From NCBI GenBank assembly GCA_944389465.1, contig CALXML010000003.1:20369-84368 (forward strand): a stretch of DNA of 64,000 bases, written 5' to 3'. A program made the translations under genes and the position numbers. This stretch comes from an uncultured Alphaproteobacteria bacterium (GTDB lineage: Bacteria > Pseudomonadota > Alphaproteobacteria > Rs-D84). Below the pieces are notes generated by a model, which saw only the letters and a program-made list of their open reading frames with translations, had not been told where the DNA came from and ran no database searches. Below, piece after piece: positions 16,999 to 39,137 of the stretch. Positions within the stretch are counted from its first letter, which is position 1. Each line of letters begins with the position of its first letter.

Positions 16999-17379
16999 TT
17001 ATTCAATCGGACGTACAATTTGTCCGTCGCCTGTAACGGGAAAACCACCGGAAATACTGTCAGTCATTGGACATGCATTGGTAAAAACGTATGAACCAGT
17101 CCGGTCGCTGTATCTGGTATTTGCCGGTGCATACATTATGCATGAACCCGACGGGTTTGATACCAGACAACTGTCCGCAGTACCGGCGGATACATATCCA
17201 GTGGGACATGCACTGTCCGCAATTGTCATATATTCTTCCTCTATTGCTATATAGCCATCCGGACAAGATGTAGATGGTGTAATTATCGCCTGTACTGGCG
17301 GTCCGATAATAACACCTCCATCCAGTGCAAATGCCGACACAGGAAAACACAATATTAATAAAATCAATATTCGTTTCAT
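16999..17379 (-). CDS. P2-family small secreted Cys protein (copy a, with a C-terminal extension)
   Basis: Start at MKRILILLIL (RBS GGAG). Conserved core TSCPDGYIAIEEEYMTIADSACPTGYVSAGTADSCLVSNPSGSCIMYAP shared with 20415..20693 and 37541..37822. Confidence 0.75.
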   Translation of the reverse strand: MKRILILLILCFPVSAFALDGGVIIGPPVQAIITPSTSCPDGYIAIEEEYMTIADSACPTGYVSAGTADSCLVSNPSGSCIMYAPANTRYSDRTGSYVFTNACPMTDSISGGFPVTGDGQIVRPIE

Positions 17380-17390
17380 CGCAATCTCCA

Positions 17391-17837
17391 TTAGTCAGAT
17401 AAATTGGAAAATAATGCATTCCTAATGGTATTATCAACACCACCGCATACTCTGGCACACTGGTTTATACACGCAGCATAAGTTGTTGATGAACTATAAG
17501 GCGGCCTAACCCATTGCGAAACTGCCGGACTTATCATTTTACACCAACAGTATTTATTAGAACTTGTGATTGATGAATTAACACTTATGTTTTCTAATAC
17601 ATCGCCTGCTTGGCCTTCATTCGCGGCACATACACCGACACCGACCAAATCAACAGTTGTTGTTCCTGTATTACACGTTGCATACCAGTCAATTGCGCCA
17701 CCAGTTCCTAGACTGATAGCGGTATTATTTTCGCATGAAACAATATTGTCCCCAAATGCCACACATTTGGTGACGGCAATGGCCGGTGGGATTGTGGCCA
17801 CACAAATCAGGCCGGCAATTAATAAATGTTTTTTCAT
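17391..17837 (-). CDS. P1-family small secreted Cys protein (copy a)
   Basis: Start at MKKHLLIAGLICVATIPPAIA (RBS GGAGA). Conserved NKYCWCKMISPAVSQWV and C-terminal FSNLSD. Paralogs at 19984..20400 and 37837..38289. Confidence 0.75.
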   Translation of the reverse strand: MKKHLLIAGLICVATIPPAIAVTKCVAFGDNIVSCENNTAISLGTGGAIDWYATCNTGTTTVDLVGVGVCAANEGQAGDVLENISVNSSITSSNKYCWCKMISPAVSQWVRPPYSSSTTYAACINQCARVCGGVDNTIRNALFSNLSD

Positions 17838-18046
17838 ATTCTTATCTCCATTTTCTTTTGTTTTTGAATAAAGAAAAACCACCAGAAATATTCAGGTGGT
17901 TGGAGTTTAAGAACAATCCAATAAATTGCGTGTTTTATTCTGTATATTCAACACACTCCAACCATTATGGTTGGATTAGTTTTTCGTCCGTATCACAGAC
18001 GTATTGGATGGGTTCTTAAGCCCAATATGTGAACACCACATATCGC
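17838..18046 (-). promoter_or_regulatory. Type-1 structured 5' leader, copy A (subtype II), upstream of P1a/P2a
   Basis: Promoter TTGATT (18079-18074), 16-nt spacer, TAATAA (18057-18052). Helices: TTAAGAAC/GTTCTTAA, TCCAACC/GGTTGGA, GTGTGTT/AACACGC, CAAT/ATTG. Terminator CCACC/GGTGG plus a U-run (17874-17899). Confidence 0.65.
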
Positions 18047-18133
18047 TTTTATTATTATCACAGACTGTAAATAAATCAACGATAAAATCATTTATTGGCG
18101 TTGGGCAATATTATTTGTATAATACCCCATAAT

Positions 18134-18787
18134 ATGAAATTGGAATCAAATGGAATTTTAATCGCACTGCAACCATTGGGTGAACGTGATTCTGTCGCCC
18201 GTATTTTTACTGCTGATTTTGGCGTTGTGTGTGGTATGATGCGCGCAGCACAAATTATGCGCAAAAACAGGCCCTTGGTTGGGCAAATCGGTACAGCCGT
18301 TTGGAATGCACGTTTGGATTCACAGTTGGGAACTTTCCATTGGGAATCTGAAAAAAATATCGCCGTTCCACTTATGACATCACGCGCAACATTGGCGTAT
18401 ATGAACAGTGCATTTGCATTAATCACAGCGTTATTGCCAGAACGCGAACAATACAAGATTTTATATGATAACACAGTTCGCCTGATGTATGAATTGGCCA
18501 ATGCCAATCCATATGATGCATATTTAAATTGGGAAATTTTATTATTGCGTGAATTGGGATATGCGCTGAATTTAAACGCCTGTTCTGGGTGTGGGGCACA
18601 TGATAATTTGGAATATTTGTCACCGCGCACTGGGCGCGCGGTTTGTGTAAATTGTGCCGCGCCTTATGTTGACAGGCTGTATAAATTGCCGTTAAACCTG
18701 AATATTACCCAACGATTTTTGGAACGTGCCTGTTTTGCCCAAGGAGCAAATTTACCACCCGCACGAAAAATGTTAACAATTGGATAA
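18134..18787 (+). CDS. recO: DNA repair protein RecO
   Basis: Start at MKLESNGILIALQPLGERDSVARIF (OB-fold N-terminus). C-terminal Zn motif CSGCG...CVNC. Confidence 0.8.
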   Translation: MKLESNGILIALQPLGERDSVARIFTADFGVVCGMMRAAQIMRKNRPLVGQIGTAVWNARLDSQLGTFHWESEKNIAVPLMTSRATLAYMNSAFALITALLPEREQYKILYDNTVRLMYELANANPYDAYLNWEILLLRELGYALNLNACSGCGAHDNLEYLSPRTGRAVCVNCAAPYVDRLYKLPLNLNITQRFLERACFAQGANLPPARKMLTIG

Positions 18788-18865
18788 ATTGTGTAATTTA
18801 TTCCTTGCACAATATAAATTTTTTGATTATCTTTTAATCAGTTCAACAGATAAAGGAGAAAAACT

Positions 18866-19699
18866 ATGACTTGGACAATCTTGGTTCTGGTGATTGGTAT
18901 TCTGTTGTTCCTGTTTGGTGGTATGTTGCTGCCAAAGGGCGATGAAAAGAAACCATCCGCTGGAAAAATCGTTGCAAAAAAATGCATCACTGTAATTGCT
19001 ATTATCCTGATTTCAGGCAGTATATGCCGTTTGTATATGCCATATTACCTGACCGCTGTTAATCCAGTAATCGTTCAGGAAATGGTCAACGGTATGCAGG
19101 AACAGCAACAGGCCGAAAAAAACAAACAAATTCGTAAATTTGTCCGTTCCGAAGGCGACAAAATGATGCGTGATGCCCCAGTTTTGGGTAATCGCGATGC
19201 GAAAAAGACAATTTATGTTTGGACAGACTTCTCTTGCCCATTCTGCCGTCGTGTACATGGTGAAATTGAACGCGTATTGGCCGACCGTGACGATACACGC
19301 GTAGTTATCAAGAATTTCTCTATCCACGGGCCATTGTCTGATGCACCGGCCAAGGCTGTGATTGCTGCAAAGTTGCAAGACCCAGCAAAGGCTGCTGAAT
19401 TGACAAATATGTTGATGACACGTGAATTTTACACCCAAGAAGATTTGCAAGACCAATCCACATTGGCGGACAAGGTTGAAGCAAACGTTATGAAAATGGC
19501 CAAAGAAGCCGGCTTGGATACTGAAAAGTTGAAAGAAGACATGAACGGCGATGTTGTTGCACGTGAAATGCGTGACGTTCGTGATTTGGCACAACGCTTT
19601 GAAATCAGCGGTACACCATTCTTAATCATTGGTGAACAGGCTTTTCCGGGCGCAATCCCAGCCGACCAAATAGAGGCTGCATTGGATGAAGCAAAATAA
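18866..19699 (+). CDS. Membrane-anchored DsbA-family thiol:disulfide oxidoreductase
   Basis: N-terminal TM helix; thioredoxin-fold active site FSCPFCRRVH; C-terminal ISGTPFLIIG. Confidence 0.8.
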   Translation: MTWTILVLVIGILLFLFGGMLLPKGDEKKPSAGKIVAKKCITVIAIILISGSICRLYMPYYLTAVNPVIVQEMVNGMQEQQQAEKNKQIRKFVRSEGDKMMRDAPVLGNRDAKKTIYVWTDFSCPFCRRVHGEIERVLADRDDTRVVIKNFSIHGPLSDAPAKAVIAAKLQDPAKAAELTNMLMTREFYTQEDLQDQSTLADKVEANVMKMAKEAGLDTEKLKEDMNGDVVAREMRDVRDLAQRFEISGTPFLIIGEQAFPGAIPADQIEAALDEAK

Positions 19700-19717
19700 A
19701 TTATTCATCTGATTTAT

Positions 19718-19749
19718 AAAAAAGTCCCACCAAATGGTGGGACTTTTTT
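19718..19749 (+). terminator. Intrinsic terminator
   Basis: GTCCCACC-aaat-GGTGGGAC followed by T6. Confidence 0.8.
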
Positions 19750-19785
19750 ATGGAAATATATATTTTTATAAAGTATAATTTTTGT

Positions 19786-19983
19786 CGTATCAGTGATATT
19801 GCTGATATGGGGTGTCGAAACCCGTCTAAACTGTCCGCGACGACATAAAACTATATCTCCAACTGTTTTGGTTGGAGGGTTGTGAATATACTGAATAAAC
19901 AACACTATGTTTAGATAGTTTCGAACCTCCAACCACCTTAAATTCGGTGGTTTTTTCATTCGCAATGAAAAAGGAGGTTTAGA
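19786..19983 (+). promoter_or_regulatory. Type-1 structured 5' leader, copy B (subtype I), upstream of P1b/P2b
   Basis: -10 TATAAT at 19774-19779. Helices: TATCAG/CTGATA, TCGAAAC/GTTTCGA, CTCCAAC/GTTGGAG, GTTGT/ACAAC, ACTAT/ATAGT. Terminator AACCACC/GGTGGTT plus T6 (19931-19956). Confidence 0.65.
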
Positions 19984-20400
19984 ATGAAAAAACATTTATT
20001 AATTGCCGGCCTGATTTGCGTGGCCACAATCCCATCGGCCGTGGCCGTGACCAAATGCGTAAAACTGTCATCTTCATCAACGTGTTCCAATTATGCGGGC
20101 GATGGGTCAAATTGGTCAATAACATGTGACGGAGTGCCTGTAAGCGGTGTTATATTTTGTGGCTCGCAGGATGGTGGTTCACGGGGTGCAACATCCACCG
20201 CTGTCGCAATCAGTTCAACCATTGAGGACAACAAATATTGCTGGTGTAAAATGACATCACCCGCAGTGTCGCAATGGGTCTTCGTCAACGAGTTAACGTC
20301 AGCCAGTCAATGCAAAACACTTTGCACATTCAACTGTGCGTATGGCACTCAATCCCAAGCATCTATGCGGTCTGCGATGTTCAGCAATCTGTCTGACTAA
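19984..20400 (+). CDS. P1-family small secreted Cys protein (copy b)
   Basis: MKKHLLIAGLICVATIPSAVA signal; NKYCWCKMTSPAVSQWV; C-terminal FSNLSD; RBS AAGGAGG. Confidence 0.8.
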   Translation: MKKHLLIAGLICVATIPSAVAVTKCVKLSSSSTCSNYAGDGSNWSITCDGVPVSGVIFCGSQDGGSRGATSTAVAISSTIEDNKYCWCKMTSPAVSQWVFVNELTSASQCKTLCTFNCAYGTQSQASMRSAMFSNLSD

Positions 20401-20414
20401 ACAGGGGGACGAAT

Positions 20415-20693
20415 ATGAAACAAATAATTGTTTTAATTATGGTGATTGCACCGATTGGCGTATTTGCCGCCGCACCGTCCACATCATGCCCATCGGGTTA
20501 TGTCGCAGTGGTGGAAGAATATATGACAATCGCGAACAGTTCGTGTCCCACCGGATATACATCCGTCGGCACGGCGGACAGTTGTTTGGTATCAAACCCA
20601 TCGGGTTCATGCATAATGTATGCGCCGACCGGTGTCAGTTATACGGATGCATCCGGTACATACGAATATACCGCCGCATGCGCAATGGAATAA
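20415..20693 (+). CDS. P2-family small secreted Cys protein (copy b)
   Basis: Signal peptide; TSCPSGYVAVVEEYMTIANSSCPTGYTSVGTADSCLVSNPSGSCIMYAP...YEYTAACAME; RBS GGGGGA. Confidence 0.8.
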   Translation: MKQIIVLIMVIAPIGVFAAAPSTSCPSGYVAVVEEYMTIANSSCPTGYTSVGTADSCLVSNPSGSCIMYAPTGVSYTDASGTYEYTAACAME

Positions 20694-20730
20694 ACGGCAA
20701 AGTTTGTCGGCAACCGACAATTATCAAAAT

Positions 20731-20758
20731 AAAAATCGCCCATGTGGGCGATTTTTTT
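20731..20758. terminator. Bidirectional terminator (P2b / rplI)
   Basis: A5-TCGCCCA-tg-TGGGCGA-T7. Confidence 0.75.
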
Positions 20759-20772
20759 AATGTTGCAAAATA

Positions 20773-21387
20773 TTATTCTGCATCAGCCGGTTTTTCAGCA
20801 ACTGATTCCTGTGCTGGTTCTGTATCGGTGGATACAGTTTCAGCAGCGTTTTCATTTGATTCCGCGGTTGCTTTCTCTTCAGCGGCCTTTTGTGCGCCAA
20901 ATGTTAAAACTTTGCCGGCAACCAAGGCGTCAATTTCATCCTGTGATTGTGCAACATAAATTTTAACTGGAACAATTACATCCGGATGCAATGCGATTTG
21001 TGTATCAAATACGCCAACAGATTTAATTGGTGCACCCAACATAACCTGTGCTGATTCAACATTAACATTGGCAACTTCTTTTAACATACGTGCAATGTCG
21101 CGTGTTGATACAGAACCATATAATTGACCGGTATCGCCAGCCTGACGAATCATATATAATTTTGCATTCTTAACCGCATCAACGTTGGATTCGGCTGCTT
21201 TGCGGGCGGCTTCTTGGCGGGCCTGTAATTCAGCCTTTTTCGCTTCAAACAATGCGATATTTTCGCGTGACCAACGCATGGCCTTGCCCATTGGTAACAG
21301 GTAATTACGTGCAAAACCTGTTTTTACATCAACTGTGTCACCAATGTTGCCCAGTTTTGTAATTTTTTCTGTTAAAATAACTTTCAT
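20773..21387 (-). CDS. rplI: 50S ribosomal protein L9 with an acidic C-terminal extension
   Basis: Start at MKVILTEKITKLGNIGDTVDVKTGFARNYLLP. Confidence 0.93.
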   Translation of the reverse strand: MKVILTEKITKLGNIGDTVDVKTGFARNYLLPMGKAMRWSRENIALFEAKKAELQARQEAARKAAESNVDAVKNAKLYMIRQAGDTGQLYGSVSTRDIARMLKEVANVNVESAQVMLGAPIKSVGVFDTQIALHPDVIVPVKIYVAQSQDEIDALVAGKVLTFGAQKAAEEKATAESNENAAETVSTDTEPAQESVAEKPADAE

Positions 21388-21536
21388 TTTATCTGTCCTT
21401 TGTTTCAAGTTAGGGTAAAACCCAAATATTAATGTGTATTGGATAATTATGTGGATAAATTGCGGGTGTTCATTTCAGTTTCAATGTGTGTTTTTGCATA
21501 CATATGAAACAGTGAACAATGCGCGTTGCCACAAAA

Positions 21537-21764
21537 CTAGCCCAAATTGTTGCGAACGAATGGCATCAATCCCAAATGGCGTGCGCGTTTAATTGCGGTT
21601 GCCAATTCACGCTGGTCTTTTTGTGAAACACCGCTGATGCGTGATGGAACGATTTTACCACGTTCTGTGATATAGTGGGACAATGTTTTGATGTCTTTAT
21701 AATCAATAACCTTGCCCTTTAATGGATTAGATTTTTTACGATAAATTGCTGCGCGAACTGCCAT
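21537..21764 (-). CDS. rpsR: 30S ribosomal protein S18
   Basis: ...[50 protein letters not shown]. Confidence 0.95.
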
Positions 21765-22102
21765 TATTCTGCCTCCTCGGTGTTCTTTTTCATCATAATT
21801 GATGGTGTTGTGGATAATTCTTTGACGCGAACGTTCAAGTAACGGATAACGTCTTCGTCAATGCGGGCACGACGTTCCAGTTCCGCAATTTTATCGCCGG
21901 CCAATTCAATGTTCAACATAACATAGTGTGCCTTGCGATTTTTACGAATGACATAGGCCAGATTTTTCAATCCCCAAAATTCTGTGGATTTTACATCACC
22001 ACCCAGTTCACGGATAATTTCTGTGTATTTTGCCGCCTTTTCTTTTACCTGCGGTTCGGTTAAATCTTGGCGGAAAACCAAGACGCTTTCATAATAAGCC
22101 AT
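21764..22102 (-). CDS. rpsF: 30S ribosomal protein S6
   Basis: [21 protein letters not shown]...; its stop overlaps the rpsR start. Confidence 0.93.
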
Positions 22103-22334
22103 ATTTATTTTTCCTTTGGTTTATACAGCCGACAACCCCATGCTGCCAGCAGGAATCCCACCAATTATGCCAATTTATTTAATAAAATCAAGTGTTTTTA
22201 TGCCTTGCAGTTTTTGTTCATAAATGCCCCATATTTATATCGGAATTTTTTAACAGTTATGTAAATACTAGCCCTTGACTTAAAATAATAAAATTTACTA
22301 ATATCATTATATAAGAAGACAAGAAGAGAGATAT

Positions 22335-23114
22335 ATGACAAACCAATTTCATCACGCATTAAATCGTATGGCGTTGTTTACGGCTTTATTAGTTGCCGGA
22401 TTGATTTTGTTTTATCAGCCTTTTTTGCGTGTGGCTGCGGCAAATGTTTTTCTGAATGGAATTATTATCGGTACAACAATATTTGGAATTGGGTTGTGCT
22501 TTGTGGAAATGTTTAAATTGTTGCCTGAATATAAGTGGGCGCGGGCTTATTTTGCAGGGCGTAAAAATGCGCCACTGCCACCGCGTTTGTTGCGGCCGGT
22601 GGCATTGATATTGCGGGCGCGTCCGATTCGCATATCTGCAACCACACTGAATGGGATGTTGGATATGATTTTAACACGATTTGAAGATTCACGTGAATCC
22701 ATTCGTTATATTACAAATACATTAATCTTTCTGGGGTTGTTGGGGACTTTCTGGGGATTGATTGTAACCGTTGGTGGGTTTGCTGATTTAATTGGTTCGC
22801 TGAATTTTGCGGATGAATCGGTTATGCAAACAATGCAGGCGGGATTGACACGCCCATTGTCCGGTATGTCCACGGCGTTTACCAGTTCGTTAATGGGATT
22901 GGCGGGCAGTTTGGCAATCGGATTTCTGGGGTTACAGGTTCAATTGGCACAAAATGGTATTTTCCGTGAACTGGAAGATTACCTGTCTGCGCATACCAGT
23001 GTTGCCGCAACAGATGCGGTTGCAACAGTATTGCCACAAATAAATAATGCAACATCAGAATTAAATAAAAGTGTGCGCGAATTAAAAGAAACGTTTTCTG
23101 AACTGGTCCAATAA
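22335..23114 (+). CDS. MotA/TolQ/ExbB-family proton-channel protein
   Basis: Multiple TM helices. Family motif TLIFLGLLGTFWGLI and ...MSTAFTSSLMGLAGSL. Confidence 0.7.
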   Translation: MTNQFHHALNRMALFTALLVAGLILFYQPFLRVAAANVFLNGIIIGTTIFGIGLCFVEMFKLLPEYKWARAYFAGRKNAPLPPRLLRPVALILRARPIRISATTLNGMLDMILTRFEDSRESIRYITNTLIFLGLLGTFWGLIVTVGGFADLIGSLNFADESVMQTMQAGLTRPLSGMSTAFTSSLMGLAGSLAIGFLGLQVQLAQNGIFRELEDYLSAHTSVAATDAVATVLPQINNATSELNKSVRELKETFSELVQ

Positions 23115-23138
23115 AATACAAAAGCAAGAGAGAGAAAA

Positions 23139-24251
23139 ATGTTAAACATTCGTTTCCGTGAAAAAACAAATACATGGCCCGCGTTTGTGGATTTGTTTTC
23201 AAATCTGGTAATAATACTTATCTTTTTGCTGATAGTGTTCGTGTTTTTGTGGACAACCACCAGTGTATTTAACAAGGATACAGGTGCAAAAACAGTTGCT
23301 GATTTGCGGCGGACTAATGAAGAGCAGGCACAAAAAATTGTTCAAATGACAGCTGACGAGGAAGAGGCCAAACGTCTGTTGATTTTGGCACGCAGTGAAT
23401 TAGAAAATCTGACCGCCAGTAATAATCAGTTGTCTGATGAATTACAGCAGGTTGATGTCAGTATGGATGAATTAATCGCTGAATACGAGGCCAAGGTTGC
23501 AGAACTACAGGCACAGGGAACTGATTTATCCGCACAGGTTGCTGATTTAACCAATCAATTAAATCAGGCAACATTGGATAAACAGCGTACGGCTGAATTG
23601 GAACAGGAACGCCGCGCATTACAGGAACAGATGGCGTCCCAGCGTGCATCTTTGGCGGAACAATTGAATAAATTACAGGCCGCGTTGGATGCTGCTGAAG
23701 AAGAGTCGCACCAAAAAGATATTCAATATGTTGAAATGTCAACACGTTTGAACAAGGCCTTGGCGGACAAGGTTGCAGAACTGAACAATGTTTCGCAATA
23801 TCAGTCTGAATTTTACAAGGGGATAAAAGATGCGCTGGGGGATGACAATTTTATTGAAACCATGGGTGACCGCTTTGTAATATCCAGTGACATTTTATTT
23901 GGCAGTGGTTCATATACCCTGTCGCCCGAGGGTAAAAATCAATTGCGCTTGATTGCCAATGTTATCAAGGGACTGGAAGATAAAATCCCAACAAACATAG
24001 ATTGGATTATTCGTGTTGATGGGCATACTGACCGGCAACAGGTTATCCGTGGAACGCGTGGATATTCCAACAATATGGAATTATCCCTGTTGCGTGCAAA
24101 TGCGGTTGTAAATGAATTGGTGGCAGATGGCGTGTCAAAGCGTCGCTTGGTCCCCAGTGGTTTTGGTGATTTACATCCCGTTGTATTGGGTACTGATGCG
24201 GCTAGTTTGCAACAAAACAGACGCATAGAATTACAATTAACAAACAGATAA
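23139..24251 (+). CDS. TM + long coiled-coil + OmpA/MotB-like peptidoglycan-binding protein
   Basis: N-terminal TM helix (FVDLFSNLVIILIFLLIVFVFLW). About 170 aa is heptad-rich and Q/E/L-rich. The C-terminal OmpA-like domain reads ...GHTDRQQV...NMELSLLRANAVVNELV...NRRIELQL. Confidence 0.7.
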   Translation: MLNIRFREKTNTWPAFVDLFSNLVIILIFLLIVFVFLWTTTSVFNKDTGAKTVADLRRTNEEQAQKIVQMTADEEEAKRLLILARSELENLTASNNQLSDELQQVDVSMDELIAEYEAKVAELQAQGTDLSAQVADLTNQLNQATLDKQRTAELEQERRALQEQMASQRASLAEQLNKLQAALDAAEEESHQKDIQYVEMSTRLNKALADKVAELNNVSQYQSEFYKGIKDALGDDNFIETMGDRFVISSDILFGSGSYTLSPEGKNQLRLIANVIKGLEDKIPTNIDWIIRVDGHTDRQQVIRGTRGYSNNMELSLLRANAVVNELVADGVSKRRLVPSGFGDLHPVVLGTDAASLQQNRRIELQLTNR

Positions 24252-24276
24252 AAAGCGGGGCGTTGCCCCGTTTTTT
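24252..24276. terminator. Bidirectional terminator (CGGGGC family)
   Basis: AAAAG-CGGGGC-gtt-GCCCCG-T6. Confidence 0.8.
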
Positions 24277-24802
24277 ATGATTGATAGTAACAGTTACTGT
24301 CATATACGCCGGAACCGGTGCTGTCTGAAAAGGATGTGCCCGCCGGTATATAACATGTTGTTATACTAAAACTGCCGGTGGTGGCCGTGGTTGCGGCGGA
24401 ATGGCCTGTTGCCGTGGCACAACTGGTGCATTTGCCTGAAAGGCTATTAAGGCTGTAATATCCCTTGTCGCAGGAATATTGACATGTGGCAAGTGTCCCA
24501 CTTTTTACGCATCGTACTGTGTAATGGCCGGATTCGCTGTGGGTCGGTGTTGTGCTGGGGCAGGCGGACGGGCAACTGGGGCCCCCACCGCCAGTGCTTT
24601 GACAAGTGCATACTGCGGTTGGGGTTTGGCCACTGGGGCATGTCAGTCCACTGCAGTTACATGTTTTACATGACCCGTCCGGATTATATGTCGCGCACGG
24701 ATATGGTGGCGTGCATAGAACAGAAGGATAGGTTATTGCATCGGCCGGCATTGTTTGTATAAGAACCGCTGTCAGTGCGGTAATAATTGTTATTGGTTTC
24801 AT
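24275..24802 (-). CDS. Secreted cysteine-rich protein with a C-terminal GYY...CxxC...CYIP...CYY module
   Basis: Signal peptide MKPITIITALTAVLIQTMPADA; RBS GGGGA; C-terminus CDKGYYSLNSLSGKCTSC...TTCYIPAGTSFSDSTGSGVYDSNCYYQS. Confidence 0.75.
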   Translation of the reverse strand: MKPITIITALTAVLIQTMPADAITYPSVLCTPPYPCATYNPDGSCKTCNCSGLTCPSGQTPTAVCTCQSTGGGGPSCPSACPSTTPTHSESGHYTVRCVKSGTLATCQYSCDKGYYSLNSLSGKCTSCATATGHSAATTATTGSFSITTCYIPAGTSFSDSTGSGVYDSNCYYQS

Positions 24803-25182
24803 GATTTTTATTCCCCATGGTTTAATATGTTAAACCGCCCGTCGTAAATTTTTTACGACAAGCAAAAACCGCCATCATCGGGCGGTCGGGAATTTGAAAA
24901 ATCATAAGCAAAAATGACCCTGCGGCTTTCAATATATAACCGCAGATTCCCGACCTTTTACAAAAGTCGGGTGGATAAAGCATACGGCAATCAATGGCCA
25001 TGTGGCTTTATCATGGATATGTCAGTGCGGTTGCGCACTGTTTGCTTATGGGATTTTCAAGTCCCTGAATCCAACGTCCCCGTTGATTCATATTTAAGTA
25101 TAGTTTATGTTGGTTATAAAAACAATAAAAACATTGTGTGACCGCATTTGTTAGCCGTGCGGCACGGCTGGTTACCCCCCCT

Positions 25183-25288
25183 GTCATTGCGAGGGAGGGC
25201 GTACGCCCGACCGTGGCAATCCATAAAATGCATTTGCTGACGCAAATAAGTTTATAATAACTGGATTGCTTCGCTTTGCTCGCAATGA
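25183..25288. repeat. Long imperfect palindrome (nested inverted repeats), REP/MITE-like
   Basis: GTCATTGCGAG (25183-25193) pairs with CTCGCAATGA (25279-25288). The inner GGCAATCC (25215-25222) pairs with GGATTGC (25263-25269). It encloses a GGGCGTACGCCC hairpin. Confidence 0.6.
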
Positions 25289-25417
25289 ATCCGAGTATGT
25301 GAAAACAAGCGACAGCGCAGTTTGAACAAGTACCGAGGATACGCACAGGGTACGCAGTACCCGAGCGACACATGCATAAAAAGAATCACGAATTACGAGT
25401 AACGAGTTATCAGTAAC

Positions 25418-25441
25418 AAAAACGGGGCGATGCCCCGTTTT
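25418..25441 (-). terminator. pgk terminator (CGGGGC family)
   Basis: CGGGGC-gat-GCCCCG flanked by an A-run and a T-run, immediately 3' of the pgk stop. Confidence 0.8.
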
Positions 25442-26611
25442 TTATTTGTCCGCCAATATTTCAATGCCGGGCAGGGTGCGGCCCTCTATATATTCCAGAA
25501 ATGCGCCGCCGCCGGTTGATACGTATGTAATGTCATCTTTGACCCCACAGGCCTGCAGTGCGGCAACGGTGTCGCCGCCACCAACAATACTGTCCAATTT
25601 GCCCGCACGGGTTTGTTCGGCAATTGTTTTTGCAATGGCAAATGAACCGTATGACCATGTCGGTTGCCATTCCGCCATGCCGACCGTGCCGTTCCAGATT
25701 ACTGTCGCCGCGTGACGAATTGCGTCGGTGTCGCGTTCGGTTGTGGCAATGCCGGCATCAATGATAATATCATCATTCTCAATTTCGGTGAAATCTTTGT
25801 TGGTGCGGGTGGCGGTTGGGGTAAATTCCTTGGCAACGCCCTTGTCCAATGGTAACAGAACTTCGCAATTATTTTGTTTTGCGTATTCCAAAATTTCCAG
25901 TGCGGTGTCTTTCTGGTCTGCTTCGTATAATGAATTGCCGACACGGCCGCCCATTGCATAGTTAAATGTTGTGCCCAATGCGCCACCGATAATTAATTTG
26001 TCGGACAGTTTGGCCAAGGCCTTTAACACACCGATTTTGGTGGAAACTTTACTGCCCGCGACAATTGATAATAACGGGCGTTTCGGGTTTTCCATAACCG
26101 CGGACAGGTGTTCTATTTCAGATGCCAGCAATTTTCCCGCATATGATGGCAGTATTTCTGCAACGCCAACGGTACTGGCGTGGGCGCGGTGTGATACGGC
26201 GAATGCGTCATTTACAAAAATGTCAAATCCGTCGGCCAATTTTTTTGCAAAATCTGGGTCGTTTTGTTCTTCACCTGCATAAAAGCGCACATTTTCCAGC
26301 AAAACAACATCACCGTCATTCATATTTTGCATAAAATCCCTGTCCAGACAGTCGGCAATTAATGGAATTTTCATATATTCTGCAACTGGGGCCAATGTGT
26401 AATCCATATTGCGCGTGCCACGTGGGCGGCCCAAATGTGCACAAATCGCAATGCGTGCACCACCCGCGCGCAGTGCGTTAATTGTTGGCATACTTTGTTC
26501 AATGCGAAATGCGTCGGTAATGCGTCCGTCAACGATTTGTACGTTAAAATCGTCGCGCAGTAAAACATATTTGCCGCGCACATCCAGATTATCAATCGTG
26601 CGAAGTTTCAT
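25442..26611 (-). CDS. pgk: Phosphoglycerate kinase
   Basis: 389 aa. Has ...LLRDDFNVQ..., ...FVNDAFAVSHRAHAS..., ...STGGGAFLEY... Confidence 0.95.
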   Translation of the reverse strand: MKLRTIDNLDVRGKYVLLRDDFNVQIVDGRITDAFRIEQSMPTINALRAGGARIAICAHLGRPRGTRNMDYTLAPVAEYMKIPLIADCLDRDFMQNMNDGDVVLLENVRFYAGEEQNDPDFAKKLADGFDIFVNDAFAVSHRAHASTVGVAEILPSYAGKLLASEIEHLSAVMENPKRPLLSIVAGSKVSTKIGVLKALAKLSDKLIIGGALGTTFNYAMGGRVGNSLYEADQKDTALEILEYAKQNNCEVLLPLDKGVAKEFTPTATRTNKDFTEIENDDIIIDAGIATTERDTDAIRHAATVIWNGTVGMAEWQPTWSYGSFAIAKTIAEQTRAGKLDSIVGGGDTVAALQACGVKDDITYVSTGGGAFLEYIEGRTLPGIEILADK

Positions 26612-27233
26612 TTTTATTCATCCTTTCTTTTACTGGTTTATAACTTTTACGATAATGTTCGTTTATACCATATTTTTCAATTGCGTGCAAATGTTCGGGG
26701 GTGGGATAGCCCGCATTTTTATCCCACCCGTACATTGGGTATTGTGTGGCCAAATCGTGCATAATTTTATCACGTGTTTGCTTTGCAATAATGGATGCGG
26801 CGGCAATGGACAATGATTTTGCATCGCCACGCACAATGGGCATGCCGGTTAAATGTGGCGGCAACTTGTTCCCGTCAATCAGGCAAAATTGCGGTGTGCA
26901 AGTTAATTTTTGTACCGCACGTTCCATTGCGGTCAGGGACGCGTGCAGAATGTTTAATTCATCTATTTCAGCCGGACTGCATTGTGCCACCGCCCAAATT
27001 GTGTTTTGGGTTATCCAATCGTACGCCAGCATTCGCATATGTGCGGTCATTTGTTTTGAATCACGAATTATAACCGGTATTTCAATGTCACGACGTGGGA
27101 ATATAACCGCCGCCGCAACCACCGGCCCACACAGTGGGCCACGGCCGGCCTCGTCCACGCCGGCGATGGTGGTAAAGCCTGTTTCGTTTTCAATATCAAA
27201 TGTTGGTGTTGTTTTCATAGTGATTAAAACCAT
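26592..27233 (-). CDS. rnhB: Ribonuclease HII (start uncertain: 27233 or 27218)
   Basis: IAGVDEAGRGPLCGPVVAAAVIF catalytic motif. The end overlaps the pgk start by 20 nt. Confidence 0.9.
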   Translation of the reverse strand: MVLITMKTTPTFDIENETGFTTIAGVDEAGRGPLCGPVVAAAVIFPRRDIEIPVIIRDSKQMTAHMRMLAYDWITQNTIWAVAQCSPAEIDELNILHASLTAMERAVQKLTCTPQFCLIDGNKLPPHLTGMPIVRGDAKSLSIAAASIIAKQTRDKIMHDLATQYPMYGWDKNAGYPTPEHLHAIEKYGINEHYRKSYKPVKERMNKNETSHD

Positions 27234-27280
27234 ATCACAAATTTATGGTAAATGGAAAACTTTTCATATATAATGTATGG

Positions 27281-27475
27281 CGTATCGGTGTGTTGCCGGT
27301 ATGTGGTGTCACAACCCGTCAAAACGCGTTTCGCATATGCGAAATGAAAAAAATCTCCAACATTGGTTGGAGGGTGCTGAATAACCAATAAAGCACACTA
27401 TTCGTTTTGATAGTTGTGAACCTCCAACCCACCTGAAAAAATTTTTCTGGTGGTTTTTTATTATGGGGGAAAATT
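27281..27475 (+). promoter_or_regulatory. Type-1 structured 5' leader, copy C (subtype I), upstream of XRE regulator 1
   Basis: -10 TATAAT at 27269-27274. Helices: ATCGG/CCGGT, TCACAAC/GTTGTGA, TTTCGCAT/ATGCGAAA, CTCCAAC/GTTGGAG, GTGCT/AGCAC, ACTAT/ATAGT. Terminator CCACC/GGTGG plus T6 (27428-27459). Confidence 0.65.
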
Positions 27476-27826
27476 ATGGTTGGAATAAAGCACCAGATGT
27501 GTGAATTTGATATTAATGCCGGACGAATTATTGCAATGCTGCGTATGCGTATGGGATTAAGCCAGCAGGATTTGGGTAAAAAATTGGGTGTTACTTTTCA
27601 GCAAATTCAAAAATATGAATGTGGCGAAAACAGATTAACCGCCGCACGATTAAATGATATTTGCCGTGTGTTTGAAATATCGCCGGCCGCATTTTATGAC
27701 AATGTTAACCTGCCATATGTTCATGATAAATGTATGATGGATTTAATAAATACTGTTTATAAATTACCAACTGGCCAGCGCAAGATTATTTTGCAAATCG
27801 CCACGGCATTCCATTTGGCGGGCTAA
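27476..27826 (+). CDS. XRE-family helix-turn-helix transcriptional regulator (116 aa)
   Basis: GLSQQDLGKKLGVTFQQIQKYECGENRLTAARLNDICRVFEISPAAF is a canonical HTH_XRE pattern; RBS GGGGGA. Confidence 0.8.
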   Translation: MVGIKHQMCEFDINAGRIIAMLRMRMGLSQQDLGKKLGVTFQQIQKYECGENRLTAARLNDICRVFEISPAAFYDNVNLPYVHDKCMMDLINTVYKLPTGQRKIILQIATAFHLAG

Positions 27827-29553
27827 ATTGCCATGCGGTCGGCGATTTGTTTTTGGACGTATTCGTCTTCGCTGTTATACAGGGGCCATTCGGCGTTTGC
27901 CAAATCTTTCATTGTTGTTAATGGTTGGTCCAGACGTGCGCGATACAACCACATATTTGACATAACACGCTTTATATAACTGCGGGTTTCGTATGTTGGA
28001 AAACTTTCTATATACAGCAGTGGGTCATATGTTTCAAACATTTTTTCAAAATCCACCAATGTGCCCATGCCGGCGTTATATGCGGCCAACATTTTTATTA
28101 TATTATTGTTTATATTTGGGTGTGCCAATAAATCCACAATGTATTGTTGGCCTAAAAACATATTATGTTCTGGGTTTTGCATATCTATGTCAGACATATT
28201 GACCTTGTTTTCGCGGGCGACACGTTTGGCAGTGCTGGGCATAATTTGCATCAGGCCATTTGCACCCGCACCTGATTTTGCGTTCGTGCGGAAACCACTT
28301 TCCTGTTTAGTAATTGCCAATAACAATGCGCGGTCAATGGACCAACCGCCCATTGGTTCCCAATCGGGCAGGGGATATTGCGCCGAATATATAATATTGT
28401 CATCAATTTCCAAAATTCCGCGGTCTTTTACCAAACTGGATGCCTGAATTGATACACGCGGCAGGCCATATGCCGTTGCAATGGAATTTATTGCGTGCAG
28501 GGTTTTATCTGATACTTTGGCCGTTATCATATATTTCAGATACAATTCGGCGCGGTCCTTTTGACCCACCTGTAACAAAGCCAATGCAATTTTGCCGTAT
28601 TTTGTTTCGCGCAAAGTATCAACATCGTCGTCGGTACAGTCCTGTTCAAAAAATTCGTATCGTGGTGTGTGCCCCAGCATCACGGATGATAATGCGCCAT
28701 AAAATGCCATTGGATGTGCGGCGGCGATTTTCCAGTATTTTTTTGCCGCACTGCGGTTACCGTTGGCATCGGCCGCACGGCCCGCCCAGAAGGCGGCCTC
28801 GGTCTTGCGGGCATTATTTATTTGTTCCAAATCCAAAATAGCACTGAAATATTTTTCACTTTCGTCGTATTTTTCTTCTTTGAAATACAGCAATCCCATT
28901 GCCCACAGGCCATATTCTGATTTCGCATCTGATGCAACAAAGCCCCATTTTTTTGCCAATTCAAATTCACCGTTTGTGTAATATATAAATGATAAACGGC
29001 CAGCCAGACGGCCATAATCTGATTCGGTTAATTTCTTTTTAAATGATGAATCTTCCAGAATGTTGCGGGCGGTTTTTGTTGCGCCACTGCGAATTGCACG
29101 CTTGAATTTATTTATTTTGGTGTTTGTTTCGCCAGAATATTTTTTGGCTGTCCATGTTTCGGATTGTGCCGTTTCAATAGATGCACCGCCACTGATTGTG
29201 CGCGGAATGTACGGCTTGCGAACGGTGGCCTGTTTTATTTTTGCCAATTTTGCCATACGTTCAGCCCCCGGCATATCGTAATATTTTTCCATCCATGCGG
29301 TGATTTCCCTGCCGCGGGTACGATATGTATCAGAAATATACCGTTGGTATAAGACTTCGTTCATTAACAGGGGGTCGGATAATTGTTCTTGTAATTTTTG
29401 CGCCGCGGATATTTCTTCGGCATCCTGAAGTAAGAATATTTGAGTGTATAAACTGGCGTCTGCATCGGATAAAACATTTATATCCGGCAGGTCTGCTGCA
29501 ATCGCAGTCAGTGGCAAAAATATTGCTATTAAAAATGTGAATATTTTTTTCAT
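27823..29553 (-). CDS. Soluble lytic murein transglycosylase (Slt70-like)
   Basis: Start at MKKIFTFLIAIFLPLTAIA (signal peptide). Superhelical N-terminal region. SLT domain ...TKQESGFRTNAKSGAGANGLMQIMPSTA...AAYNAG. Confidence 0.85.
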   Translation of the reverse strand: MKKIFTFLIAIFLPLTAIAADLPDINVLSDADASLYTQIFLLQDAEEISAAQKLQEQLSDPLLMNEVLYQRYISDTYRTRGREITAWMEKYYDMPGAERMAKLAKIKQATVRKPYIPRTISGGASIETAQSETWTAKKYSGETNTKINKFKRAIRSGATKTARNILEDSSFKKKLTESDYGRLAGRLSFIYYTNGEFELAKKWGFVASDAKSEYGLWAMGLLYFKEEKYDESEKYFSAILDLEQINNARKTEAAFWAGRAADANGNRSAAKKYWKIAAAHPMAFYGALSSVMLGHTPRYEFFEQDCTDDDVDTLRETKYGKIALALLQVGQKDRAELYLKYMITAKVSDKTLHAINSIATAYGLPRVSIQASSLVKDRGILEIDDNIIYSAQYPLPDWEPMGGWSIDRALLLAITKQESGFRTNAKSGAGANGLMQIMPSTAKRVARENKVNMSDIDMQNPEHNMFLGQQYIVDLLAHPNINNNIIKMLAAYNAGMGTLVDFEKMFETYDPLLYIESFPTYETRSYIKRVMSNMWLYRARLDQPLTTMKDLANAEWPLYNSEDEYVQKQIADRMAI

Positions 29554-35428: not shown

Positions 35429-37486
35429 ATGAATCCAGAAGAAATGCAAGAAACGCCCGAACAGGCCATTGCAAAATATACCACTGATTTTACTAAATTG
35501 GCGGCAGATGGCAAATTGGACCCTGTTATTGGGCGCGATGAAGAAATTCGCCGCACGATACAGGTTTTATCGCGGCGTACAAAAAATAATCCCGTGCTGA
35601 TTGGTAATCCGGGGGTTGGTAAAACTGCCATAGTAGAGGGCTTGGCCGAACGAATCGTATCGCGCGATGTGCCCGAAAATTTATTAAATAAAAAATTGTT
35701 GTCGCTGGATATGGGGGCGTTGATGGCCGGCGCGATGTTCCGTGGCCAGTTTGAGGGCCGGTTCAAGGCTATATTAAAAGCGGTCAAGGATTCTGATGGA
35801 CAAATTATTTTGTTCATTGATGAATTACATACGCTGGTTGGTGCCGGCAAGGGCGAGGGCAGTATGGATGCCGGTAATCTGTTAAAGCCGATGTTGGCAC
35901 GTGGTGAATTGCACTGTTTGGGCGCAACAACGTTGGACGAATATCGCCAATATATTGAAAAAGACCCTGCGTTGGCGCGACGTTTTCAGCCCGTGTATGT
36001 TGATGAACCCAGTGTTGATGACACGATTTCAATCCTGCGTGGATTAAAAGAAAAGTACGAGGGCCACCACGGTGTTCGTATTTCTGATGCGGCATTGGTT
36101 TCGGCGGTGCGTTTGTCCAACCGTTATATTACCGACAGATTTTTACCGGACAAGGCAATTGACCTGATTGACGAAGCCGCCGCACGCGTTCGTATTGAAA
36201 TTGCGTCAAAGCCTGAAAAATTGGACGAGGTTGACCGCCATTTAATGCAATTGAAAATTGAACAACAGGCATTAAAGAAAGAAAAAGATGAAGATTCCAA
36301 AAAACGGTTAAAGGAACTGGAATCTGTTATCAAAGAAACCGAGGCTGAATCTGAAACACTGACGGCACAATGGCGTGCCGAACAGGAAAAAATGCGCGCG
36401 TTATCCGATGCGATGGCTGCGTTGGATTCTGCCAAGGCAGAGGTTGCCGCCGCCATGCGTAATGGCGATTATGAAAAAGCGTCCGCCCTGCAATACGGTA
36501 AAATCCCAGAACTGGAAGAACAGATTCAAAAAATGAATGCGGAATCGCGTGAATATAAAACAGTTTTGCCTGAACATATTGCGGCTGTGGTCAGTAAATG
36601 GACCGGTGTGCCGGCTGATAAATTAAGTATGGAAGAGCAATCCAAACTGTTAAACATAGAAGACGAACTGCGCAAGCGCGTTGTTGGTCAGGACCATGCT
36701 TTGACAGTTATCGCACGTGCGATTCGCCGCAGTCGGGCGGGATTGTCTGACCCACATCGGCCAATGGGCAGTTTTATGTTTCTGGGGCCGACTGGTGTTG
36801 GTAAAACCGAAGTGGCCAAGGCTTTGGCAGAATACCTGTTCAATGATGATACGGCCATGACCCGTATTGATATGAGTGAATATATGGAACCGCATTCTGT
36901 ATCACGCCTGATTGGCAGTCCGCCGGGGTATGTTGGATATGAACAGGGGGGCGTGCTGACCGAAAGTGTGCGTCGTCGTCCGTATCAAGTTTTGCTGTTT
37001 GATGAAATTGAAAAGGCAAATCCTGATGTGTTTAATGTCTTTCTGCAGATATTGGATGATGGGCGTTTAACAGATGGTCAGGGACACGTGGTGAACTTTA
37101 CAAATACCATTATAATTATGACCAGTAATTTGCCAGATATGGATGCGGTAAAGAAAAATTTCCGTCCGGAATTTATAAACCGTATTGATGAAATTGTATT
37201 CTTTAACCCATTGGGCAAGGATGTAATGGCCGGTATCGTAAAGATTCAATTGCGTAATTTGGAACAACGTTTGTCCGAACGCCGCATAACATTGGATGTA
37301 TCAGACAAGGCCATTAAATGGTTGGGTGATAATGGGTATGACCCTGTGTTTGGGGCACGTCCATTAAAGCGACTGATTACATCCGCCGTAGAGGATAAAA
37401 TAGCAGACTTGATTTTATCCGGCCGTGTGGCCGAGGGCAGCACCGTATACGTTGATGTCCATGGCAAGGATTTAACCGTTCAATAA
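35429..37486 (+). CDS. clpB: ClpB disaggregase lacking the N-terminal domain (685 aa)
   Basis: Begins ~13 aa before ...[50 protein letters not shown]. Has the M-domain coiled coil, a second Walker A GPTGVGKT, and ...GARPLKR. Confidence 0.9.
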
Positions 37487-37540: not shown

Positions 37541-37822
37541 CTATTCCAGTGGGCAGGCGGCGGTATATTCATATGTGCCGGATGCATCCGTGTATTCTGT
37601 ATTTGCCGGCGCATACATAATGCATGAATCGGCGGGATTGCCAACCAAACAACTGGTTGTCGTGCCGATTTCTGTGCGCACAGATGAACATGCTGTATCT
37701 GTTATTGTTATATATTCTTCTTCTATGGTGATATAACCGGTTGGACATGATGTTGTTGGCGTGATGGCAAAGGCCACAGTATGCGCCATTGTCACCAAAA
37801 CAAAAATTAAAAATTTTTTCAT
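37541..37822 (-). CDS. P2-family small secreted Cys protein (copy c)
   Basis: Signal peptide; TSCPTGYITIEEEYITITDTAC...TTSCLVGNPADSCIMYAPANTEYTDASGTYEYTAACPLE; RBS GGGGGA. Confidence 0.8.
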   Translation of the reverse strand: MKKFLIFVLVTMAHTVAFAITPTTSCPTGYITIEEEYITITDTACSSVRTEIGTTTSCLVGNPADSCIMYAPANTEYTDASGTYEYTAACPLE

Positions 37823-37836
37823 ATGCTGTCCCCCTT

Positions 37837-38289
37837 TTAGTCCGACAGTTGACTAATCATATTTGGTAAAAATTGTGGAAAATTTGATTTGAAGTTCAAT
37901 CCATCACGGCACGCAGTGGCACAATTGTTTATGCACATGCCATTGGATGGGAAAGAGGATGCATACACCCATTGTGATACGGCGGGGGATGTCATTTTAC
38001 ACCAGCAATATTTATTGTCATCCGCCGTACCACTGCTGGTCAGGGTGACAGACAGGGTGGCGGACAATTTGCCGGCAGTGTCACCGTTTTGTGATGAACA
38101 GGCGGCAATGCCACTGACTGTTGTTGGGCCACCACGCATTGAACAACTGCCGGACCAGTCCAGATTTCCACTTTGTGCATCAATATTGCATGTCATACTG
38201 GTGTTTAATGCCACACATTTGGTGACGGCCGCGGCGGGCGGAATTATGGCCACGCACAGCAGGCCGGCGATTAATAAATGTTTTTTCAT
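37837..38289 (-). CDS. P1-family small secreted Cys protein (copy c)
   Basis: Start at MKKHLLIAGLLCVAIIPPAAA; NKYCWCKMTSPAVSQWV; C-terminal ISQLSD; RBS GGGAGA. Confidence 0.8.
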   Translation of the reverse strand: MKKHLLIAGLLCVAIIPPAAAVTKCVALNTSMTCNIDAQSGNLDWSGSCSMRGGPTTVSGIAACSSQNGDTAGKLSATLSVTLTSSGTADDNKYCWCKMTSPAVSQWVYASSFPSNGMCINNCATACRDGLNFKSNFPQFLPNMISQLSD

Positions 38290-38495
38290 ATTCTTATCTC
38301 CCTTTTTCATTTTATTGATATGAAAAAACCACCAGAATTTTCGGGTGGTTGGAGTTTAAGAACAATTGAGTGAATTGCGTGGCTTATTCAATATATTCAC
38401 CACACTCCAACCGCTATGGTTGGATTTATTTTTTACGTCCGTTCCCAGACGCACCCAATGGGTTCTTAAGCCCAATGTGGAAACACCCCACATCA
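38290..38495 (-). promoter_or_regulatory. Type-1 structured 5' leader, copy D (subtype II), upstream of P1c/P2c
   Basis: Promoter TTGATT (38528-38523), 16-nt spacer, TATTAT (38506-38501). Helices: ATGTGG/CCACAT, TTAAGAAC/GTTCTTAA, CGTCTG/CGGACG, TCCAACC/GGTTGGA, GTGTGG/CCACGC, CAATT/AATTG. Terminator CCACC/GGTGG plus a U-run. Confidence 0.65.
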
Positions 38496-38603
38496 AATTA
38501 ATAATATCATACGCGTGGGGTAAATCAACATAAATAGTTTGGCGGGCGGTTGGGGGTACCAGTTAACCATTTGCAATTTTATGTGCGTATGTTATAATTA
38601 ATG

Positions 38604-38785
38604 GTCATTGGATGATTACCAATGTGGGGTGTAAGAACCTCTTCTTCGTGCGAACTCCAACACGGGTTGGAGGGTCGTGATATATTTGAATAAGCGACAC
38701 TATTTACGAAGAATAGTTCTTAACCTCCAACCGCCTTTCATCACGGCGGTATTTTTGTTTAATAAAGCAAATTTGGGGGGATAAA
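38604..38785 (+). promoter_or_regulatory. Type-1 structured 5' leader, copy E (subtype I), upstream of XRE regulator 2
   Basis: Promoter TTGCAA (38571-38576), 16-nt spacer, TATAAT (38593-38598). Helices: CATTGG/CCAATG, TAAGAAC/GTTCTTA, CTCCAAC/GTTGGAG, GTCGT/GCGAC, ACTAT/ATAGT. Terminator ACCGCC/GGCGGT plus a T-run (38730-38756). Confidence 0.65.
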
Positions 38786-39013
38786 ATGACAGTAATATTA
38801 TTTGATTCACGCGTGTTGGGCACTGCAATGGCGCATGGACGTAAAAATGCACGCCTGCGCCGTGGTGATGCGGCACGAATGTTAAAAATACAATATAAAA
38901 CATTACGAAAATATGAACAGGGCCAACAAATGATACCAGATGCAATACTGGAAAAATTACTGACATATGGATTTACATTGCTGTACGCCAAACGTACTGA
39001 TTTAAAGCAATAG
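38786..39013 (+). CDS. XRE-family helix-turn-helix regulator (75 aa)
   Basis: ...RRGDAARMLKIQYKTLRKYEQGQQMIPDAILEKLL... HTH pattern; RBS GGGGGGA. Confidence 0.7.
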   Translation: MTVILFDSRVLGTAMAHGRKNARLRRGDAARMLKIQYKTLRKYEQGQQMIPDAILEKLLTYGFTLLYAKRTDLKQ

Positions 39014-39137
39014 ATTTGCAATTACAATTGTGTCATTTCTGGGGTGTTGGCCCACAGAAATGGCACGATATTATTAACCGGATTTAAAAAGATAGGGATG
39101 ACAAGCAAACTGTCCGTAAAAGTCAGATGGTGGACAA

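Follow-up and report, generated by a model that had tools for sequence, protein, structure and literature searches.

Two divergent leader RNAs, each behind a promoter of its own

The DNA analyzed here is a stretch of 64,000 nucleotides (the window) of contig CALXML010000003.1 (assembly GCA_944389465.1, positions 20,369 to 84,368) from an uncultured alphaproteobacterium of the Rs-D84 lineage. At 38323-38756 it harbors two related leader RNAs of ~155-175 nt each, arranged back to back on opposite strands. Leader D (minus strand) precedes an operon for the signal-peptide proteins P1c and P2c, and leader E (plus strand) precedes a gene for a small XRE-like helix-turn-helix (HTH) protein. We consider it likely that D and E are copies of a lineage-specific 5′-leader RNA that operates as a bistable transcription attenuator. 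The features of the locus and of the wider family are collected in Table 1, where names such as P1, P1b and P1c denote either RNA helices or proteins, as indicated.

The initial annotation described a divergent pair of leader copies with a promoter for each and three flanking open reading frames (ORFs), and these elements were all confirmed. Leaders D and E align at 77% mean column identity over ~200 nt and score 176.8 bits (38322-38496, minus) and 133 bits (38604-38756, plus) with a covariance model of the family. Their sigma-70-like promoters have the hexamers and 16-nt spacers originally given, with 42 bp between the two -35 hexamers, and from these promoters transcription is predicted to start near 38494 for D and near 38605 for E. 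P1c is the first gene after leader D, with its ATG (38289) ~34 nt past the U-run, and P2c begins 14 nt after P1c in the same operon; the XRE ATG (38786) lies 29 nt past leader E. A second in-frame ATG of P1c is present further upstream at 38310. However, 38289 was taken as the start because the other P1 copies also begin with MKKHLLIAG and a GGGAG lies just before it.

Table 1. Coordinates of the divergent locus, other leader copies in the window and variant leaders from other loci. Positions are those of the window; RNA segments are given 5′ to 3′.
Feature	Position	Strand	Details
Promoter of leader D	38501..38528	minus	-35 TTGATT 38528-38523, 16-nt spacer, -10 TATTAT 38506-38501
Leader D RNA	38323..38494	minus	5′ hairpin P0 38474-38494; seg1 UCCAACC 38418-38424; seg2 GGUUGGAGU 38404-38412; helix P3 38377-38403; seg3 ACUCCAACC 38347-38355
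Leader D terminator		minus	stem 38344-38350 with 38327-38333; U-run 38323-38328
P1c	37837..38289	minus	150-aa signal-peptide, Cys-rich protein
P2c	37541..37822	minus	93-aa signal-peptide, Cys-rich protein
Promoter of leader E	38571..38598	plus	-35 TTGCAA, 16-nt spacer, -10 TATAAT
Leader E RNA	38605..38756	plus	P0 38606-38624; helix P1 5′ strand 38632-38638; seg1 CUCCAAC 38655-38661; seg2 GGUUGGAGG 38665-38673; helix P3 38674-38698; helix P1 3′ strand 38716-38722; seg3 CCUCCAACC 38724-38732
Leader E terminator		plus	ACCGCC 38730-38735 with GGCGGU 38745-38750; U-run 38752-38756
XRE-like HTH gene	38786..39013	plus	75 aa, behind leader E
Leader copy A	17872..18046	minus	upstream of P1a/P2a operon
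Leader copy B	19786..19957	plus	upstream of P1b/P2b operon
Leader copy C	27281..27460	plus	upstream of 116-aa XRE (HTH_3) gene
Type-2 relative	24800..25075	minus	CCCGAC / GGUCGGGAA / UUCCCGACC, then terminator; same architecture as type 1
Variant leader, locus L040			seg1 CUCCUGAC; seg2 GGUCAGGAGG; seg3 CCUCCUGACC
Variant leader, locus L112			seg1 CCAAUCC; seg2 GGAUUGGAGG; seg3 CCUCCAAUCC
Variant leader, locus L088			seg1 CUCCUGAU; seg2 UCAGGAGG; seg3 CCUCCUGA

The leader is conserved in two mutually exclusive folds

Alignment of the family identified two mutually exclusive folds that are both evolutionarily maintained, one of which permits the terminator while the other consumes part of it. 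In the terminator fold, a variable hairpin (P0) at the 5′ end is followed by the long-range helix P1/P1b, which closes a junction with P2, P3 and an optional hairpin inside it, and then by an intrinsic terminator; the optional P1c hairpin is missing from leader E. Across an alignment of 119 sequences, 92.5% of the cells of this fold are paired, compared to 36.5-45% when the partners are slid, and double changes are present in 28 of the 42 pairs; none of 500 shuffles reached the observed values. Strong covariation is seen in the terminator stem as well as in P0, P1, P1b and P3. The terminator itself has a GC-rich stem, its consensus ends in a U-run, and its helices covary and are 94-96% paired. 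A simple terminator scanner did not detect these terminators, probably since it allows loops of up to 8 nt and theirs are longer. P2 (seg1 CUCCAAC with seg2 GUUGGAG) forms a near-perfect palindrome that hardly varies in the canonical (type-1) leaders, and seg1 is less conserved than seg2 and seg3. The P3 loop of ~15 nt (GAAUAUAUUGAAUAA) is conserved and unpaired in both folds, and is a candidate effector contact site.

The antiterminator fold involves a third copy of the motif, seg3 (NCUCCAACC), which is located between P1 and the terminator and overlaps the terminator 5′ arm. Pairing of seg2 (GGUUGGAGN) with seg3 (NCUCCAACC) forms a 9-bp helix that takes 3-4 nt of that arm. Additionally, the 5′ strand of P1 is held in a local GGG...CCC hairpin (H), and a second hairpin (J, CNAU...AUNG) is placed between P3 and P1, from J3/1 to the P1b/P1 junction. 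Pairing in the antiterminator fold amounts to 96.5%, a value again reached by 0 of 500 shuffles, and ViennaRNA yields the same local hairpins H and J when the antiterminator is forced.

Support from outside the modeled structure came from mutual information. The column pairs 24:37 (GC 71, GU 24, AU 14), 121:134 (UA 64, AU 53) and 93:143 (GC 79, UA 27, UG 7 and 4 non-pairs) are exactly pairs of hairpin H, of hairpin J and the ninth antiterminator pair, respectively. These three pairs occur in many combinations and so do not reflect a single clade split. A24 accompanies U37 in 14 of 14 sequences, and the same A24 would be a mismatch against C146 in the modeled distal P1. One further covarying pair, 27:119 (UA 56, CG 51), fits neither fold and may be a tertiary contact.

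The variant leaders of loci L040, L088 and L112 and the type-2 relative have seg1, seg2 and seg3 all altered together, which argues that the constraint acts on RNA pairing. Canonical and variant copies stand side by side on the same contigs or loci (L040, L088), as expected from pairing among three RNA segments. The type-2 leader of the window is upstream of a 175-aa Cys-rich secreted ORF (24275-24802), and a metagenome scan showed that type 2 is a family of its own, every member of which carries cccgac...GGTCGGGA...TCCCGACC followed by a terminator.

The leader family recurs in gut and rumen genomes

The window contains five occurrences of the core motif GTTCTTAAMCTCCAACC, where 0.18 would be expected by chance. 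With type 2 included, six related units are present in 64 kb, corresponding to ~1 per 10 kb. A degenerate pattern derived from the five window copies matched at least 115 loci in a one-genome-per-species collection. The counts of family members, syntenic arrangements and downstream genes given here and below are among the matches listed, as 8-kb blocks, of these at least 115 loci. Nearly all of them are from gut or rumen metagenome-assembled genomes (MAGs) labeled Ca. Enterousia, Alphaproteobacteria or 'Rickettsiales'. A covariance model (R1) was built from the same five copies and applied with a cutoff of E<=1e-3; it gave 119 matches in the window and 99 loci and 30 further matches in the remaining loci searched, of which two represent leaders D and E of the window as present on a contig of the same species. 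The family has at least 140 examples in MAGs labeled Candidatus Enterousia or unclassified Alphaproteobacteria. A few matches lie in records labeled Bacteroides fragilis or Muribaculaceae, most likely as binning errors, and pattern matches in two clearly foreign taxa (Varibaculum and Chloroflexota) were not confirmed by the covariance model. Ca. Enterousia are uncultured gut Alphaproteobacteria placed in the order Rs-D84, with genomes mostly <1 Mb and a reduced central metabolism (PMC12306168).

A search of the whole window with Rfam 15 at gathering thresholds found three tRNAs only and matched no family to the leaders, and permissive Rfam scans of 38200-38900 and 17000-28000 gave nothing meaningful on the type-1 copies. 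No description of the motif was found in the literature on Ca. Enterousia, on Rs-D84 riboswitches or on structured RNA of gut Alphaproteobacteria. The family is a previously undescribed, lineage-specific, orphan attenuator- or riboswitch-like leader outside Rfam. The existence of more than 140 examples with covariation for both conformers makes it a well-defined orphan riboswitch or attenuator candidate in which to look for a ligand, with the unusual traits of cassette-like promoter-plus-leader units, arrays, a regulon of surface proteins and regulators, and a reduced-genome host.

Type-1 leaders were also observed on two IMG/VR contigs classed as viral (L240, 12021-12195; L241, 769-943), in both cases ahead of a 316-aa secreted protein. 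In L240, the leader lies just downstream of genes for a putative DNA methyltransferase and a PLD-like nuclease. These contigs may represent an integrated element or may be misclassified.

Leaders precede secreted proteins and small regulators

Examination of 105 downstream ORFs showed that ~55% have signal-peptide-like N-termini by a rough heuristic, many of them Cys-rich, and that 23 match HTH_31, an XRE-type HTH; about a third of the downstream genes encode small HTH regulators. By BLAST clustering, 24 are XRE-like, 22 are secreted proteins related to P1 and 8 belong to a distinct HTH family of 60-78 aa; there are also a porin-like group and many singletons, which include a GmrSD nuclease and a DNA methyltransferase. 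The genes behind the leader fall into ~40 unrelated clusters and include no fewer than three different small HTH families; in this the leader resembles a general upstream sensor and not a private link between the XRE gene of leader E and P1/P2. With ~1 leader per 10 kb in front of secreted Cys-rich, outer-membrane-like, HTH and restriction/modification genes, it is also a candidate master switch for surface presentation.

The P1 proteins form a lineage-specific family. The window encodes three copies (37837-38289, 17394-17837 and 19984-20400), with the same P1-P2 pairs behind leaders A and B as behind D. The family comprises 456 homolog clusters at 90% identity, all unnamed or 'hypothetical', and is fast-evolving, most members being 45-50% identical to P1c. 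The proteins share an AVTKCV motif behind the signal peptide, a core of CWCKMxSPAVSxWV and an LSD at the C-terminus. Neither P1 nor P2c gave a Pfam match (for P2c, none above cutoff). An AlphaFold2 (AF2) model of P1c (predicted local distance difference test, pLDDT, 76.7) has a beta-sheet and C-terminal helices, and its search against PDB returned no significant fold match (best E=0.66). The 75-aa protein behind leader E is a divergent HTH (Pfam HTH_31, E=4.7e-5, 24 bits against a 27-bit cutoff) and belongs to the cluster of 24 leader-linked HTH genes. The 116-aa protein behind copy C is a clear HTH_3 (44 bits).

Several leaders are organized as tandem arrays. Five units are present in L110 (3936-5063, minus), three each in L086 (5564-6152), L069 (2338-3023) and L112 (2939-3806), and two each in L079 (378-788) and L101 (4279-4693). 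Every L110 unit comes with its own promoter and a degenerate Shine-Dalgarno (SD) remnant, and compensatory changes in helix P1 distinguish the units from each other. The arrays of L110, L086 and L079 end at small HTH genes.

Proposed attenuation mechanism

On the basis of these features, each leader would be transcribed from its own sigma-70-type promoter and the nascent RNA would adopt one of the two folds. The local hairpins H, P2, P3 and J would probably form first, after which the RNA would partition between the folds. In the terminator fold, P1/P1b would close a three-way junction with P2 and P3, leaving seg3 and the downstream arm free to form the intrinsic terminator, and transcription would stop 15-40 nt ahead of the start codon. 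In the antiterminator fold, the polymerase would be expected to read into P1c-P2c (leader D) or the XRE gene (leader E). The balance would presumably be tipped by a trans factor, for which a small molecule or ion, a protein and another RNA are all candidates; our guess is that this factor would stabilize the thermodynamically favored terminator fold.

The layout of the family is consistent with this scheme. A TTGnnn-16/17-TATAAT promoter ends 5-9 nt before the model start in nearly every listed leader, and the downstream start codon is mostly 15-40 nt past the U-run, so that no room is left for another promoter. A GC-rich stem with a U-run lies right upstream of an ORF, as in attenuators based on an intrinsic terminator. 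Additionally, an evolution-backed helix (seg2:seg3) is exclusive with the terminator, as in attenuators and transcriptional riboswitches.

The nature of the trans factor can be addressed only tentatively. We regard a small molecule or ion as quite possible, at somewhat below an even chance, and a protein as slightly less likely; the remainder falls to RNA-RNA cross-talk or to a purely kinetic or thermal mechanism. The near-invariant and mutually complementary seg2 and seg3 might let copies cross-talk in trans, which the promoter-plus-leader arrays would fit. It is conceivable, if on balance doubtful, that the family is a new riboswitch class or, more broadly, a new signal-sensing RNA. In that case, one small-molecule or ion signal would control, in the reduced-genome Rs-D84 gut symbionts, a large part of the variable secreted and surface proteins together with small HTH regulators and some restriction/modification genes.

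Several points weigh against a bistable, signal-responsive attenuator. We infer conditional termination from the sequences, and the same applies to read-through, the transcription start and the termination site. The terminator fold is favored by 10-15 kcal/mol over the forced antiterminator at full length and by just 3-10 kcal/mol in the nascent RNA, before the terminator 3′ arm is made; being clearly more stable in silico, it leaves the antiterminator a role that might be only kinetic. Because the alignment (A4) follows model R1, pair counts are inflated for the modeled fold; the alternative-fold pairs are outside the model. As seg2 and seg3 are nearly invariant in type 1, most antiterminator pairs are without covariation, and therefore support for seg2:seg3 comes from the ninth pair and the variant leaders. 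The regulated genes, being surface or secreted proteins, HTH proteins and a few restriction/modification enzymes, do not point to a metabolite. Finally, arrays of up to five promoter-plus-leader units are more typical of small RNA (sRNA) genes than of riboswitches.

Alternative explanations for the leader copies

The arrays lead to the alternative that the units are mainly independent sRNA genes, whose terminated products of ~170 nt act in trans on seg2 and seg3 of each other or on SD-like GGAGG sites, with read-through being incidental. Each unit has its own promoter and terminator, the tandem arrays of L110, L086, L069 and L112 exist (with compensatory P1 differences among the L110 units), seg2 and seg3 do not vary, are complementary to each other and resemble SD and anti-SD sequences, and the copy density is high, at six related units in 64 kb. 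However, a gene in the same orientation mostly follows 15-40 nt past the U-run, without room for a promoter of its own, and the antiterminator fold that would serve read-through is itself under selection. A search of the window for the complement of the P3 loop gave 17 near-matches compared to ~7 expected; the closest were the leaders themselves, and no convincing external target stood out. We consider sRNA genes an unlikely account of the family as a whole. The terminated leader RNAs may nevertheless also act in trans, and a dual cis/trans function is possible, as the two roles are not exclusive.

The second alternative concerns the locus itself. In the initial annotation, the shared leader class was proposed to join the XRE gene and P1c/P2c in a feed-forward or autoregulatory module gated by one signal, and loss of the linkage in relatives was set beforehand as evidence against it. 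Synteny did not support the module, as the XRE/leader/P1-P2 linkage is not conserved beyond the species and the XRE-plus-leader unit adjoins unrelated genes in 15 other genomes. By their N-termini the neighbors in these genomes look housekeeping, and none of these XRE-plus-leader loci has divergent P1/P2 genes or a second leader. The D/E arrangement was found only in contigs with an identical XRE protein, which share the order ClpB, P2c, P1c, XRE, 249-aa ORF and ABC transporter. A homolog search with the leader-E XRE protein gave three near-identical clusters only and no synteny beyond the known loci. The part of the proposal that survives is that one kind of signal for both genes is reasonable, since both stand about 30-35 nt behind the same class of structured leader.

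The split into subtypes that was proposed in support of the module, with copies A and D restricted to P1/P2 operons, likewise held in part. All 24 members of the main XRE cluster have G:C at the ninth antiterminator pair. The D-like subtype, defined by U:A at this pair, is found before P1 genes too; however, it also precedes small HTH genes and many others. The D/E pairing is a species-level juxtaposition of two regulon members and not a dedicated regulator-target module; interest lies in the leader family as a whole, and the XRE/P1-P2 pairing is incidental.

The same model would make the leader-E XRE protein a dedicated regulator of itself and of P1c/P2c, binding either the intergenic DNA or the P2 element CTCCAAC-N4-5-GGTTGGAG as DNA or RNA. 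The units are adjacent and divergent, the product behind E is HTH-like, the nearly perfect palindrome of P2 hardly varies in type 1, and autoregulation would suit a leader class of which about a third of the linked genes encode small HTH proteins. On the other side, the 15 genomes with the same XRE-plus-leader unit do not have the linkage, at least three unrelated small HTH families follow the leader and offer no single obvious cognate binder, coordinately changed variants coexist with canonical copies (L040, L088), and the 5′ half-site of the palindrome, seg1, is the least conserved segment. The specific case of P2 as a DNA operator for XRE is disfavored by the coordinated three-segment changes and by the synteny. 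Taken together, we judge a dedicated XRE regulator improbable. A last alternative, a dispersed DNA repeat or a mobile cassette that carries a promoter and has no RNA-level function, is hardly credible. In its favor, there are many copies with the promoter region included, a relic of seg3 and terminator arm lies at 38545-38557, and the arrays suggest spread by duplication. The covariation already contradicts this explanation, with massive compensatory changes in five helices over ~120 copies, visible even between adjacent units of one array, and the leaders keep a fixed strand, distance and orientation toward the start codons.

Comparison with known RNA regulators

An attenuating leader of this kind is most similar to transcriptional riboswitches and T-box elements. 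It shares with them a position in the 5′ untranslated region right behind the promoter, a complex covarying fold followed by an intrinsic terminator, and a switching helix that overlaps the terminator arm. T-box and c-di-GMP-I elements also occur in many copies per genome and occasionally in tandem, a likeness to the leader family. The leader differs in having no Rfam match, in regulated genes that are not metabolic, in the promoter carried by each tandem unit examined, and in covariation derived from both conformers.

The switch follows the same 1:2, 2:3, 3:4 logic as a trp-type attenuator, with seg1:seg2 as anti-antiterminator, seg2:seg3 as antiterminator, and a terminator formed by the seg3-overlapping arm and a fourth segment (seg4). 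It differs by the large sensor-like domain (P0, P1, P1b and P3) around the switch. Leader-peptide attenuation was rejected, as no ORF is conserved and an ATG ORF of at least 10 codons reaches seg1/seg2 in just 60 of 109 leaders. Where such ORFs are present, their frame and stop position are scattered between copies, and the stems covary at all positions.

Listeria SreA/B and the alphaproteobacterial 'cuckoo'/CcsR arrays are examples of sRNAs that are riboswitch- or leader-derived or occur in multi-copy tandem. The leader resembles these in its terminated transcripts, tandem units and C-rich anti-SD-like motif. However, there is no sequence or Rfam match to them, nearly every unit or array is tied to an ORF, and the read-through fold is conserved.

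A further relation was identified with sRNA-Xcc1 (RF02221), whose topology of a 9-bp closing helix (GGCCGGGGG/CCCCCGGCC) around two hairpins mirrors the antiterminator fold. The type-2 copy (24876-24955) reached 33.6 bits against this 87-nt model when 341 nt were searched (E=2.7e-4), short of the 53 bits that the gathering threshold requires, while D, E and the other type-1 copies gave no match even at E<=10. Published members of sRNA-Xcc1, from integron cassettes and APSE phage, have symE or ORF6N genes downstream of them (10.1101/2025.06.18.660453; 10.1101/2020.03.17.996009), and on account of this position they could also be leaders. Membership of our family in sRNA-Xcc1 was dropped, as 5-6 Xcc1-like GGCCGGGGG...CCCCCGGCC loci on viral contigs are without an obvious seg1 or an adjacent terminator. 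The similarity is a lead and not a membership.

Additional features of the window

Two other genes of the window were noted. A Cys-rich secreted protein of 835 aa is encoded at 13954-16461 (plus) near leader copy A and, unlike its neighbors, has no recognizable leader upstream. The ClpB-like gene beside the P1c-P2c operon (35429-37486, plus) encodes 685 aa, the same length as in the contigs with an identical XRE protein, and its product appears to be without the usual N-terminal domain.

Right after the XRE stop, a strong hairpin at 39040-39076 (plus) has a GGGUGUU-type loop as in leader P0, with no remaining leader and no U-run. The untranscribed spacer between the D and E promoters contains GGCGGTTGGGGGT at 38545-38557, which is 92% complementary to seg3 and the terminator arm of E (38723-38735) and appears to be left over from an older leader copy or a recombination joint. 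Finally, the 5′ hairpin arm of D (38475-38491) is an inverted repeat of 38515-38531 in the spacer and -35 region of its own promoter. The ACCCCAC...GTGGGGT relation is shared by a D-like copy in locus L001, and a weaker one (ACACCCA...GTGGGGT) is present in L028; this repeat could be a putative operator or an alternative structure.

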